From Eledone cirrhosa (lineage: Eukaryota): 64,000 nt of DNA. A program made the position numbers and the translations under genes. Within the stretch, counting starts at the first letter, position 1, and each line of letters begins with the position of its first letter. Positions 5,213 to 51,365 of this stretch are shown here, piece by piece. The notes beneath the pieces were generated by a model. That model made no database searches and had not been told where the DNA came from. It saw only the letters and a list, made by a program, of their open reading frames with translations. Where the stretch lies: the NCBI GenBank assembly GCA_964016885.1, contig OZ024755.1:24366001-24430000 (forward strand), read 5' to 3'.

Positions 5213-6960
5213 ATCTCTGTTTAATCAAAAATCACTTTGCAGATTGTACTGGGTGCATTTTATCATGGCACCAGCACCTGAAAGGTCAAGTCCTTGACAA
5301 GACAAAAGAGTTCCCTCAAACCTATGTCATCTTTGTTTGTCTATCCACCACTTTACAGGTTGTACAGAGTGTGCTGCATCTGTGTTATAAAGACTTTACA
5401 ATGTGTTACACTAATATAATTGTTACTCTAATATAGGTAAGTATTAAATTCCAAACTTTTCATTGTACATTTACAAACTGTTCATCATCATCATCATCCA
5501 CTTTCCACACTGGTATGGGTTGGTCATGTTGTCACAGTTTGATTTTTTTCAGAATTGCTGACAACCTAGACAGGTTAGACATCTGTGTCTCACACATATG
5601 TACTATTGCTTTGGAATGATTTCTATGATTGAACACCCTTCCTAACATTAACCACTTCATAGAGCATAAGGGGGCACATTTTCTCATGTCATCAACATTA
5701 GTAATGTTGATATATCCTTTGTAGCGGTAGAGGGTCTTTCGATCCTATATTATCTCTACACTGAAGTCACCTATGGTACCAGGAAAAACAGGAAGAAGTG
5801 ATCAGAGGAGAAATGTATTGAGTTTTCAATCTATAACACATGTTTCTGTACAATTACATAACTGTCTACATGCACTGACTGCATTATACAATGCTCATTC
5901 ATGTGCATTACGTTTCTATTATTGCACTTCATCAGAAAAAGGTTAACAAAGAGGAAGAAAATAATTTGTGGGTACCACATTTCTGGAATATGCATTACTT
6001 ACTGCTGACAAAGCTAAAGTACAAAACATTGGTATATAGAGAAATGCAGAATCAAAATATAATATACAAATAACAGTATTTGTATATTATATATTAAATA
6101 AGTAAGCAAAAAATAATAAATAAAATAATAAAATCATGAATTACAATAAATATACCAAGTATAGATACACTATTTGTGTGGGGAGAGATTACAATCCAAA
6201 TGACCAATGAGAAGTATATTAGAGTTGTAAGTAGAGAGAGTTCAGGGAGAGGAAGGATTAAGGCTGGTAAAAAAAACCCTACTTAATTCATATATTGTAG
6301 ATAGGGGAAGAGGGGGAGGAAAAAGAAAAGAAAAGAAAAGAGAGAAGAAAAAAGAAAGGAGGCTGGAGTGACCAGAATTGGTAAAATATCATGGAAAGGC
6401 TATAAATTAGCTTGGAGCAGAGAATTAGTTTTATCTCAACAGGAATCACCAACAGAAAGGACAAGTGGGCACCAAAATGAATCAAGGCAGAGAGAAAGGG
6501 TGAGTATTTCAAGTAGAGTGGATATGGAGACACAGAATCCTATCCTATAATAGTCAGAGTGATATTTAGTGAAAGTCTTTAATGCCTTATGCTGGAAGTT
6601 AAAGATTCTATTGTATTGAGAGGTCAACAGATCTGATCCAGTCATAATTTCTAATACTTCCATCACAAAGATCACAGGAGCATCTTTCATTTTGGTATGG
6701 CAGGCAAATCTTAAAACTGACCACATTTATATATATATATATATATATATATATATATATATATATATATTTATATATATATATATTTATATATATATAT
6801 ATTTATATATATATATATGTATATATATATATATATTTATATATATATATATGTATATATATATATATATATATATATATATATATGTAGAACTAATATT
6901 TAATTTGTTGGGATTCCAACAAACTTAAAAGTTATGTCACTATTTATAAAACAAATTTTG

Positions 6961-7025
6961 TATTTTATCTGATGAAAGTGCACCAAGATTGGCTTGGTCA
7001 CCCTTGAAATATATATAATAAAATA
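6961..7025 (+). ncRNA. Minimal type I hammerhead ribozyme motif
   Basis: TATTTTAT-CTGATGA-[AAG..ACCAAG loop CTTGGT..CTT]-GAAA-TATATA-TA-ATAAAATA: perfect 8 bp stem I, intact core, palindromic stem III. Confidence 0.7.
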
Positions 7026-7974
7026 ATTATAGTTTTATAAATATAGTTTCCATTTATTAATATATTGTATATATATATATATATATATATATATATATAT
7101 ATATATAGACACACACATATATATATACATAGATATACATACATATAGAATTATATATGTATATGTACATACATATATACGTATATACATATATACATAT
7201 GCACACTTGCTTACATACACATATATATACACACAGGCATATACATACATATATATACATATATATATATACATATAAATATATTTATACATACACACAA
7301 ATATGTACACATAAATATGCATAGAGTACTGGTGAGTGAACTGGAGCAACATAAAATAAAGTGTCTTGTTCAAAAACAGAACGCAAAGCCCTATCTGAGA
7401 ATCGAACTCTAACCACTAAGCCATGCGCCTATTATATATATATACATACACACACAAACTCACACATACTCACACACAAAATGCATCTAATACTCTCTAT
7501 AAAGTGTTTAATGATAGGGAGGGCATCCAGCTATAGAAAACTTGCCAAACAAAGAGTTAGTGTTCTTCAGTTGAAGTCATGACAATTTCATTTGTGCTGA
7601 AAGCCACGATGAAATTATACCTGATACACCCTGTTGAGTGTGGGGTCGTATTATAGTGATACTGACCCAAACTAACCTGAGAGATCAGTATTTCCGATTA
7701 AGTATTGACTTGGTCTGCGATAACCCATTCAAACGTTGCTCGGAAGGAATACAGACATTGATGATAATGATGATTATGATAATGATGATTATGATAATGA
7801 TGATTATGATAATGATGATGAAGATTATATTCTTTGCACCATGGTAACGACAAGCTGCTTGTCAAATGCCATCTTTATTCAAACTACGAAACAAATTCAT
7901 AAGTAAGTTTGCCAGCTTTAACACAAAAAGAATTTTTAAAATGGATAGTTATGATGTTCATATATTTTTCAAGT

Positions 7975-8240
7975 GGTCTCTTCTTCTTCTTCTTCTTCTT
8001 CTTCTTCTTCTTCTCCTTCTTTTCTTCTTCTTCTTCCACATATTAATGAGAGGGTCGTGAGGGCAGAGTCCTGAAACACTCCTTCCAGCAGGTCCTGTGA
8101 GAAGAAACCATTTCCAGTTGATCCAGCTGCGTCCCAAAGTGAGACCAGTCAAGCTCATTGATGTTATCCAACTATCTTGCTCGGGGGTCTACCCCTGGGT
8201 CTCCTGTCGGTTGGTTTTTGTTTGTAAAATCTTTATTGAT
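7975..8240 (-). mobile_element. RTE-clade LINE 3' end with (GAA)n tail
   Basis: Minus-strand translation QGRPRAR*LDNINELDWS..., homologous to 48095-48360; ends in a (GAA)n microsatellite. Confidence 0.65.
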
Positions 8241-8544
8241 GGACCTCTGTTGATTTTAACATATGGCTGTTGCTATTGTTTGGTCAACTGAATGACCTAC
8301 TCACTAAATTTACATATACATGGCTGAGTATTCCACTGACATGTGTATCCTAGATGTAATTCTCATGCAGAATCACAGTGATACAGTGTGTAACAAAGTT
8401 GAACCTTTGAATTATAGTCTCAGTCATTCTTTTATTATTAAGAAACTGGCTGAGTATTCCACAGTCATATATACCCTTAACATAATTCATAGGTTGAATC
8501 TGGTACGGCCCATCTTTTATTATAGAGTAAATGGCTGGGCAATG

Positions 8545-48360: not shown

Positions 48361-49399
48361 TATTATAATGCATATATTTTAATGTATATGATATAATGAA
48401 TATGATAATAATGTTGCATAATTTCTAATCTATATATTATAATGTTATTGTCTGCTATGATGTATGATGAAACATTAATACATTCACATCTGCCAGGCAG
48501 CTGATCACAATACTAAATGTCGTCTGTTTTATTCAATTTCAAATACTGAGAGAACCATGCCATGTCTGGTAGATTTGCACAGTAACACACACACACACAC
48601 ACACACACACACACACACACACACACACACACACACACACACACACACACACACACACACACACACACACCCATACACATACACACGCATTAACACATAT
48701 TCACACAATCACAAATATTCGCACACATACTACTCAAATACACACACTGAGCCATGTATATATATATATATATATATATATATATATATATATATATATA
48801 TATATATATATATACACACACATACAAAATTTAACCGGTCTGACGAAAGAATGCACGCTAGCTTCCCTACGTTGGTTTTTCGTTTTATTCTTTTATCATC
48901 ATCATCATCATCATCATCATCTTCTGTTATTTCAAACGATGGGGTGATACTTCGTCACATTCACTAGATTGTTTCACAGAACATATGATAACTGTGAGAA
49001 GACTTGCGTACTTTATAATGTTAAATACAAAATATATCTCAGCTACAATATAGCTTGGACCTCCGTCGGTGAAATCAACATGCTAGTGGCCGAACATTCC
49101 ACATACATATGTACCTTTAACGTAGTTCTCAGTGGTATTCAGTGAGACACTGTGCAAGACAAAAGTTTGGCCTTTTGAATCGCATGTATTTCACATTTTA
49201 GTTACCTGAGTGTAGCAACCCATCGCCGGCAATTGAACTAACGATTGTGAGCCGAACACCCTAACCACTATGTGACATATGTTCATGGGGTATGTAGTAA
49301 TTCTGAAACATTGAGTCAGTAAAACAATCGAATGAATGGAAGAGAATCCTCCGATTAAACGAAGTTTGATTTGCTAAGACAACTACGATATTTCTCATG

Positions 49400-49800
49400 A
49401 AAATGAAAGACACTGTCTATGTTTTTAACCTTTTGTTATCATATTTTTAATGAAAGACACTGTCTATGCCTTTAACCCTTTCATTGCCATATTTCTAATG
49501 AAAGACACCGTCTATGTCTTTAACCCTTTCATTACCATATTTCTAATAAAAGACACCGTCTATTTCTTTAAACCTTTCATTACCATGTTTTTAATGAAAG
49601 ACACTGTCTATGTCTTTAACCCTTTTGTTACCATATTTCCAATGAAAGACACTGGCTATGTATTTAAGCCTTTCCCTACCATATTTCTAATAAAAGACAT
49701 TATCTATGTATTTAACTCTTTCATTGCCATATTTCTAATGAAAGGCGTTGCCTATGTCTTTGACTTTTTCATTGCCTTATTTCTAATGAAGTTCATTGCT
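49400..49800. repeat. 48 bp minisatellite (~8 copies) related to a TTAACCCTT MITE terminus
   Basis: Unit TTTAACCCTTTCATTACCATATTTCTAATGAAAGACACCGTCTATGTC; a single copy starts the element at ~38610-38865, which ends AGGGTTAA. Confidence 0.85.
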
Positions 49801-51321
49801 TATAATTTTGAAATCACTAACTCACTCTGTCTTGAAAGAATTCAGAATAAATGATAGCAGTCGGAGTAGAGTTTTCTCCTGTAGGTGTTGGAGTTTGCAA
49901 CTGGTAATACAGTTTCATGTAGGACAAAACATTACGAATTTTACAACTTTTTAAAATATTTTTTTTTCTAGACATTTTTTATGTCGTATGTTCAAAAACA
50001 CATTATTTAAACTGCCTAAAATTCGGGAACCAGTATACTACCGGTCACTTGCGACATCTTTTTCCGTCTATAAACGTCTTTACCTGATTATAGACGGAAA
50101 AAGATGTTGCAAGCGACCGCTAGGAAGAATCGAACTCCGTATCCCAACAATCACCGGCAGCACCACAATCAATACCATCACCACCACCATTACCACAACC
50201 AATACCACTACCTCCACCACCACAACAAAAACCACAACTACAGCCACCACCACCACCACCACTATCACTACCAGAACCTCCACCACTACCATCACTACCA
50301 GCACTTCCACCACTACCACCATCACTACCACCACCACTACCACCATCACAAACACCACCACCACCATCATCATCATCATCATCTCCCCACCATCACTTCC
50401 CCTACCAACACTACTATCACAACAACAACAACAACAACAACAACAACAACAACAACAACAACAACAACAACAACAACAACAACAACAACAACAACAACAA
50501 CAACAACAACAACAACAACAACAACAACAACAACAACAACAGCAGCAGCAGCAGCAGCAGCAGCAACAACAACAACAACACCAAAGAACAATTCTTCATA
50601 ATCAAATAATATCCTTAATCGAGAAAGTTTCATAAATATTACTTGAAAACAATTCTTTTTTTTTTTCCATTTCTCCGGCAATTTTAATGGATTTATTAAA
50701 ATAGACGACCAACAGAAAAAGAAAAATATAAAACTATTTCGAGGCTTCTATAGAAAGAAACTGTAGAATGGCATTATAATATATTGAGTTGCCGAACAAA
50801 CAGAAAAACGAATTATTTTCACACATGCATGCATACATACATACATACATACATACATACATACATACATACATACATACATACATACATACACACACAT
50901 ATATATATATATATATATATATATATATATATATATATATATATATATATATGTTGTTGTGTGTGTGTATATGTAGATATATATACATATATATATGTAG
51001 ATATATATACATAGATATATATACATATATATATACATATATATATATATGTGTGTGTGTATATATATTTATACATATATGTATGTATATATGTATATAT
51101 ATATATATATATATATATATATATATATATATATATATGTATATATATACACATATATATACATATATATACATATATATATATATATATATATATATAT
51201 ATATATATATATATATATATATATATACATATATATATATATATAAAGAAAATAAGAAACAGTAGAGAATGCTAATAGTATTTTAGCATGGAAAAACAAT
51301 TCAACATTTTTTAAAGGGTTG

Positions 51322-51365
51322 TAGGACCGGTTTCAGTCGATAAAAATTTCGACTTCTTCATGCTA
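51322..51365 (-). ncRNA. Minimal type I hammerhead motif (core with 1 nt insertion)
   Basis: TAG-CATGAAGA-AGTCGA-AATTTTTA-TCGACT-GAAA-CCGG-TC-CTA. Confidence 0.55.

Follow-up and report, generated by a model that had tools for sequence, protein, structure and literature searches.

Penelope-like elements (PLEs) of the Hydra clade that carry hammerhead ribozymes and insert into (TA)n microsatellites have already been published, one of them from Octopus. This element, Hydra-1_Obim of Octopus bimaculoides, is entered with a (TA)n preference and as 'no pLTR', i.e., without a pseudo-long terminal repeat (pLTR) (Craig et al. 2021, PMC8557442; cited, like the papers below, from parts of the text). 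Minimal hammerheads of metazoan PLEs are of type I with a short palindromic stem III, occur mostly singly or on opposite strands 100 to 700 bp apart, an arrangement read as truncated PLEs, and include a U3-A8 variant in Schistosoma (Cervera & de la Pena 2014, PMC4209133). Animal retrozymes consist of non-coding units repeated in tandem, each with a single type I hammerhead, and are proposed to derive from pLTRs (Cervera & de la Pena 2020, PMC7229834; Li, Clavereau & Pollet 2026, bioRxiv 10.64898/2026.07.22.740005). In vitro, the protein of PAc, a Poseidon PLE of Anolis, nicks AT-rich DNA on both strands, and two internal start sites of reverse transcription bound the tail of this element (Frangieh et al. 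2024, PMC11167929). PLEs have their promoters in the pLTR, and a TATA box plus TCACT has been noted in a rotifer pLTR. Here, a window of 64,000 nt, i.e., the whole stretch analyzed, from the octopod Eledone cirrhosa (assembly GCA_964016885.1, contig OZ024755.1, positions 24,366,001 to 24,430,000) was examined, in which a first-pass annotation made from the letters alone had described short hammerhead islands in and beside (TA)n microsatellites.

The islands are interpreted, with a probability of roughly 80%, as the hammerhead-bearing pLTR ends of several PLE families, three of the Hydra clade and one of Neptune/Nematis type, together with retrozyme-type units. Their insertion into (TA)n was likely carried out by the elements' own reverse transcriptase-endonuclease. 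Minimal and U3-A8 pLTR hammerheads, opposite-strand pairs, tails, Hydra elements in (TA)n and PLE-derived retrozymes are all already published; a reading of short PLE copies by a fixed 5' boundary was not found in the parts of the literature searched. The diversity of these elements had been thought undescribed in cephalopods, which proved only partly true, since Hydra-1_Obim and its (TA)n preference are listed in the available text of PMC8557442. Among the texts available, only Craig et al. came up for octopus or cephalopod hammerheads, and the supplements of the bioRxiv preprint, which lay outside the search, could list cephalopods. The two searched supplements of PMC4209133 held no Octopus entry, and a third, unsearchable one could list cephalopods. 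The main text of a 2026 repeat annotation of Octopus vulgaris mentioned no hammerhead, ribozyme, Hydra or retrozyme.

A strict type I descriptor (CUGANGA, stem II, GAAA, a short or palindromic stem III, UH and a stem I of at least 4 bp) gave six hits in the window, with cores at 6969+, 24374-, 24483+, 36748-, 47660- and 29051+, compared to a mean of 0.005 (maximum 1) in 200 local dinucleotide shuffles, far more than expected by chance. Five of the six were sites already proposed, and 29051+ was additional; widening the descriptor to a long stem II and a U3-A8 pair also recovered 27398(-), the core of the site proposed at 27309(-). The estimate of about ten type I motifs held in part: six of the 11 listed sites carried complete motifs, five canonical and one with a U3-A8 core, and of the remaining five, one, 37050(+), had a clipped stem I and four, 24666(-), 36208(-), 47869(+) and 51322(-), had mutated or non-canonical cores. 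All 11 fell in hammerhead repeat families, and eight families (A to H) were recognised, in agreement with the expectation of several unrelated ones; the cleavage site proposed at 7017/7018 was that given by the descriptor for core 6969. Of 380 Rfam matches in the window, the best 150 included no hammerhead and consisted of microsatellite noise, and the genome search with RF00163 returned 18 matches from 74 scored candidates, none inside the window. A DNA search of the genome with family B gave no match, an uninformative outcome since very common words are passed over in such a search. The best Rfam Hammerhead_1 hits in the genome (L001-L010) belonged to another young family with the same short and long ends and fold-backs in (TA)n.

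A content-blind sample of 750 kb, made up of 75 10-kb stretches at round-number positions and excluding four neighbours of the window, contained 61 motifs, 53 canonical and 8 U3-A8, whereas three shuffles of the sample gave 1, 0 and 0 canonical and 0, 0 and 0 U3-A8 motifs. At least one motif occurred in 31 of the 75 stretches, and the window is thus ordinary for this octopod genome. The suspected association with microsatellites was found genome-wide, as 87% of the 61 motifs lay within 300 nt of a (TA)6 run, compared to 25% of random positions. The density was about 81 intact motifs per Mb, whereas minimal PLE hammerheads are given as 4,000 to 9,000 per vertebrate genome (PMC4209133). Two more families with U3-A8 cores were seen beyond family B (L206, L209, L211 and L257), and in several unrelated families the basal position of stem II, adjoining the core, was a U.U mismatch (window 36748 and 37053; L247 and L271).

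Judged from their sequences, families A, B and D are the 3' ends of autonomous Hydra-clade PLEs, and the proposed link to PLEs was substantiated by long copies of A, B, D and E that reach PLE open reading frames (ORFs). An intact family B element was found in tandem in L076 with a 717-amino-acid ORF and a period of 3531 bp, and window positions 27295-27527 were 99.6% identical to its 3' end. Over the C-terminal 184 amino acids, all 150 scored genomic hits were 100% identical. The protein carries RW (as RWR), DKT, YRDD and CxCX5C and no CCHH, motifs that were kept across 117 aligned proteins; Y..YIG was conserved in the same alignment, and the endonuclease call rests on motifs. The Pfam scan of this ORF and the profile search of solved structures returned nothing and nothing meaningful, respectively, and the best match of the protein model (predicted local distance difference test score, pLDDT, 93) was telomerase reverse transcriptase (TERT). 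All 11 family B cores counted were of the U3-A8 type, with a stem II region of 54 nt; an earlier reading of family B as lacking a core was rejected once the U3-A8 core was recognised. Family B ends abutted TA runs in 17 of 18 terminating short-end matches and 21 of 25 long-end matches.

Family A copies stop at a short end or at a long end about 85 nt further, the long tail being often inverted at the 5' side; longer copies cross about 1.3 kb of AT-rich sequence to a Hydra endonuclease/ORF with a CxCX5C linker upstream, and one associated ORF piece (L079) shows DKT. In at least 4 of 10 fetched stretches (L340-342 and L344), a Hydra ORF with CxCX5C precedes the family D hammerhead by about 2 kb on the same strand. 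The 3' untranslated region of the family D element (L295-L314) contains more than 1 kb of mixed TA/TG microsatellite that is copied along, so this PLE may spread microsatellite DNA. An octamer-like motif, ATTTGCAT, or its reverse was noticed upstream of the ribozyme in A (L014) and C (L092 unit), with a near match in B (L076:1710-1720). In metagenomes, three near-identical related contigs of a single family, a weak set, had the ORF followed after about 160 nt by a canonical hammerhead and, like family D, a TATA-like box 36 nt before the core.

These elements resemble the Hydra-clade PLEs of PMC8557442 in the C-terminal endonuclease, RW(K), DKT, the CxCX5C linker and the absence of CCHH, as well as in the hammerhead, the probable insertion into (TA)n, the tail on one end and the inverted 5' copy. 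They differ in being very young and abundant and in length, the 3531-bp unit of B exceeding the typical <3 kb, and in the U3-A8 core and 54-nt stem II region of B, Hydra-1_Obim being compared by its description only. Family E is assigned as the 3' end of a Neptune/Nematis-type PLE, Neptune and Nematis not being separated: some 460 nt upstream of it is an ORF whose broken copies show DKG, CX4CxxC and CCHH-type motifs together with a weak Pfam match to GIY-YIG (E 0.002). Broken LTR (long terminal repeat)-retrotransposon-like gag-pol pieces were located upstream of one family E copy (L356:265-3735, minus strand). Two stretches of the window, 29170-29905 and 58620-58930, had been called Neptune-type remnants; both matched Hydra-clade ORFs instead, and the family E-type endonuclease gave no hit in the window.

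Short copies of B, D, A and one further family began at fixed points. In a sample of 79 stretches plus the window, 49 family B arms reached the leader, 37 of which began in a 17-nt zone from -4 to +12 of an initiator-like TTAGTC; five others began at +19 to +32, two at -12 and -20, and five ran further upstream. The stop rate was 0.10 per nt inside the zone, compared to 0.003 to 0.006 outside. A TATA-like TATTTAAA lies 29 nt upstream of this boundary. In family D, 13 of 14 arms began at +2 to +21 of the point 30 nt below TATAAATA, the boundary of family A is at TCACT, and in a further family, N, six of 10 starts fell at -67 to -69. The position relative to the ribozyme differed, inside loop II in B, at the start of stem I in D and 79 nt upstream of the core in A; as a consequence of the boundary inside loop II, 44 of the 49 B arms were devoid of a catalytic core. 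No fixed 5' boundary is described for minimal PLE hammerheads in the available parts of PMC4209133. Ribozyme cleavage as the source of the fixed ends was rejected, because the boundaries fall 5' to the cleavage site, and the bases preceding the nearby GUC are retained in many B copies.

Random 5' truncation, by which single and opposite-strand PLE hammerheads have been explained in print, would account for such ends by hot spots where reverse transcriptase stalls at RNA structure or by microhomology. It agrees with the dispersed starts of C and E (10 and 7 hits) and with the recurrence of several fold-back junctions, but we regard it as unlikely: the stop rate in B rose 18- to 30-fold over just 17 nt, and the spacing between boundary and ribozyme differs in B, D and A, yet the boundary stays about 30 nt below the TATA-like box in B and D.

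Families A, B and D each had two fixed 3' ends, a short one and a long one with tail; in 55 B arms, 18 ended at +61 and 26 at +144. The expected inverted-repeat islands and inverted pLTRs were present as fold-backs, and 93 head-to-head pairs in A, B and D comprised 82 long+short, three short+short, no long+long and eight unclassified pairs. A subfamily 7-mer was common to both arms in 15 of 18 B pairs, compared to a mean of 3.3 (maximum 9) in shuffles. Together, the fixed 5' ends and the pairing of long and short arms suggest cDNAs that extend from a transcription start to a priming site. We give even odds to the view that most short PLE insertions are complete 5'-leader cDNAs, bounded by the pLTR transcription start and an internal priming site, and not random truncations; whether such a leader-only cDNA would be the PLE counterpart of strong-stop DNA is just as evenly balanced.

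In this leader-cDNA scheme, the RNA would start at a promoter inside the pLTR, and the protein would nick AT-rich DNA on both strands, with cDNA beginning at two internal sites about 60 to 270 nt downstream. With the 5' pLTR as template, the cDNA would run off at the RNA 5' end and yield a leader-only insertion, while priming in the 3' pLTR of read-through RNA would give longer or full copies. A fold-back would arise where each priming site is used once, one per DNA strand. In B, the dominant active family, the promoter would lie within the ribozyme, with the TATA-like box at the base of stem II and the start in loop II, so the whole hammerhead would be present only in read-through RNA. Tandem units with a ribozyme and two priming sites (430 bp, or 191 bp including a TATA-like box of its own) would be mobilised in trans, and a retrozyme may originate when a PLE leader with a TATA box is tandemised. 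The scheme is like that of PAc (PMC11167929), where two internal starts account for the tail and AT-rich DNA is nicked on both strands, and unlike it in clade and in tail length, 70 to 90 nt here and 30 to 40 nt published; leader-only genomic copies are not discussed in the available parts of that paper.

Fold-backs and solo pLTRs could also form by snap-back self-priming of one cDNA or by later recombination instead of two primings. Snap-back has been proposed for rotifer PLEs, the arms of a pair share their subfamily, and the palindromic stem III is the turning point of some fold-backs (59450-59595). On its own, however, it leaves the other fixed end of the second arm unexplained, given 82 long+short and no long+long among 93 pairs, and synthesis by the anole protein begins at two start sites and extends both strands. 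We consider this origin possible though doubtful, and the present data cannot separate it from dual priming.

The short islands had also been taken for a distinct non-autonomous class, and copying from short masters would likewise be expected to give fixed 5' ends. This stood for family C and the 191-bp D tandem and failed for A, B, D and E, which are PLE ends. Family C is built of a 430-bp unit, which elsewhere in the genome is repeated 15.2 times in tandem, and a variant of D consists of a 191-bp tandem with 4.0 units; both are non-coding with a hammerhead in consecutive units and on this structure are classed as retrozyme-type tandem arrays. The 191-bp unit was 100% identical over 71 nt to the ORF-linked family D Hydra PLE end of the same genome. 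These two tandems resemble the published retrozymes (Cervera & de la Pena 2020; Li, Clavereau & Pollet 2026), from which the units described here differ in keeping two PLE 3' ends and in their length of 430 to 528 bp, compared to the 170 to 400 nt quoted in the available texts. Short masters are further favoured by three more tandems with one hammerhead per unit (310, 466 and 528 bp), by the just 80 to 96% identity of most short B copies to the young full-length element, and by the lack of a long copy seen for the subfamily at 25673-26014. As a general explanation for the short islands they nevertheless seem distinctly unlikely, since three B subfamilies have long copies (L076, L206 and L239), some short B copies are 99 to 100% identical to the autonomous element, the 44 core-less B arms would be incapable of self-cleavage, and A, D and E are linked to ORFs.

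Several observations weigh against the leader-cDNA interpretation and the PLE assignment. The transcription start is placed by motifs only, the D. virilis Penelope promoter is reported to be TATA-less, and no clear TATA box was seen at -30 in A or N. The boundary of A was looser in the blind sample, with four of eight starts at -2 to +1, and of 12 further family patterns, 10 had enough copies (4 to 14 extents each) and only N was sharp. Some B starts at +10 to +12 reflect a diverged subfamily that ceases to match the reference, and one was cut by a stretch edge. When contigs from three runs of unspecified type were compared with the B element, depth was 125,000 immediately upstream of the leader and 2.3 million within it (X1), with loose ends bearing TA at both 3' ends; contig depth is no copy number and a run may be the assembly's own sample, so this was not counted as independent evidence. 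For C, F, G and H, no parent element was found, and no upstream parent search was made; tblastn with the Hydra ORF showed no ORF adjacent to family C or G. Monomer folds were no more stable than shuffles (z -1.5 to +0.6). On the supporting side, stem covariation was detected in stem II of family A, where five pairs had two-sided changes, a number reached by four of 500 shuffles and a covariation score reached by none of 500, in an alignment of 16 related rows from one family collected with a pattern that fixed the core and the outer stems. Genome-wide numbers are an extrapolation from 750 kb, and the total of roughly 240,000 intact motifs holds provided this sample is representative.

Cores were mostly canonical in families A, C, D, E, G and H. 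The window copy of H has U4>C at 24754, yet all four other matched copies are canonical, and that of G has G8>U at 36296, yet eight of 13 counted family cores are canonical. Stems I and III of family A were invariant or changed on one side. Family F lacks the combination of core, GAAA, UH and three stems of a type I hammerhead, and the majority of 15 inspected copies have an 8-nt core, Y-A-UGARGA, in which position 3 is followed by an additional A. Copies of G were 75 to 87% and those of F 76 to 86% identical; one F locus holds a Hydra ORF piece that is not linked to F. A stem II change in F was compensated between two copies (window 51250-51420; L281-L294). Weak monomer folds are expected of minimal hammerheads that act as dimers, and the ribozymes of the window are predicted from their motifs to cleave, mostly as dimers.

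The formation of pLTRs, tails and inverted ends of PLEs and the role of the hammerhead are stated as open in the parts of the papers available. Extrapolated to about 10^5, the short sharp-ended insertions of this genome, which also contains a very young Hydra-clade family with intact ORFs, may serve as a statistical readout of the mechanism, and the sharp ends give exact predictions for transcript starts and priming sites. A retrozyme-type unit and the matching PLE end occur side by side in one genome. At about 240,000 motifs by extrapolation, the number would exceed the 120,000 retrozyme copies quoted for the axolotl. Positions of all assigned features are collected in Table 1.

Table 1. Hammerhead-family and PLE features of the window, and hammerhead tandems in other stretches (L numbers). 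A dagger (†) marks fragments missed by the first-pass annotation.
Feature	Position	Strand	Details
Family C tail and fragments of further hammerhead family †	12551..12768		no core
Family A (Hydra-clade PLE end)	6887..7066	+	inverted tail 6887-6933, forward arm 6931-7066 to short 3' end
Family A hammerhead, canonical	core 6969	+	predicted cleavage after 7017
Family A variant, head-to-head fold-back	24187..24581	both	long arm minus, short arm plus
Ribozymes of the 24187..24581 fold-back			minus core 24374, site 24326; plus core 24483, site 24531
Family H hammerhead, long stem II	24621..24797	-	core 24754, U4>C in window copy
Family A tail fragment †	24798..24849	-	
Family B subfamily, leader fold-backs †	25673..26014	both	ribozyme 3' half only, no core
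Family B (young Hydra-clade PLE)	27295..27596	-	233-nt 3' end and inverted tail 27527-27596
Ribozyme of 27295..27596			complete U3-A8 hammerhead, core 27398, site 27315
Upstream motifs of 27295..27596			TATA-like box 27384; initiator-like motif 27358-27353 (predicted start near 27355)
Family B subfamily fold-back †	27592..27794	both	long and short arm, both from fixed 5' boundary; no core
Family D fold-back fragment †	28785..28874	both	
Additional descriptor-passing hammerhead, no family assigned	29046..29107	+	core 29051
Decayed Hydra-type PLE ORF remnant	29392..29975	-	tblastn E 9e-7 and 2e-8, two Hydra ORFs
Family G, old, long stem II	36206..36414	-	core 36296, G8>U in window copy
Family C, about 375 nt of 430-bp unit	36440..36975	-	unit part 36816-36440, inverted arm 36823-36975
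Family C hammerhead, canonical	core 36748, site 36718	-	
Family D leader to long 3' end	37050..37180	+	canonical core 37053, stem I clipped to 3 bp; common to a Hydra PLE and the 191-bp tandem unit
Family E (Neptune/Nematis-type PLE 3' end)	47541..47745	-	minimal hammerhead, core 47660, site 47633
Family B tail †	47769..47850	+	
Family D relative, short arm	47872..47929	+	U4>C core 47875
Family F, old	51250..51420	-	non-canonical 8-nt core 51362
Hammerhead-family fragment †	51484..51614		
Decayed Hydra-type endonuclease remnant, weak match	58666..58864	+	tblastn E 0.003 and 0.018
Further hammerhead family, fold-back turning at palindromic stem III †	59450..59595	both	no core
310-bp tandem	L353:1-4927		x15.9, units 99% identical, directly beside 191-bp array
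466-bp tandem	L351:6387-7658		x2.7
528-bp tandem	L235:6569-7935		x2.6

Besides the hammerhead families, the window contains a single-exon serine protease 23-like ORF at 22516-23670 on the plus strand, with a Pfam Trypsin match and 79% identity to an Octopus sinensis protein. Fragments like non-LTR retrotransposon ORFs were located at 30166-31002 (-), with a weak zf-RVT match, 32394-32861 (-), 38225-38569 and 40462-41563. A dispersed repeat of about 600 bp is present twice in opposite orientations, with 88% identity, at 16480-17118 and 44215-44844. Minisatellites were found at 53325-54100 (77 bp), 62723-63354 (70 bp), 33797-34323 (45 bp) and 49402-49790 (48 bp), and the 45-bp unit matches a dispersed repeat that is present many times in the window.

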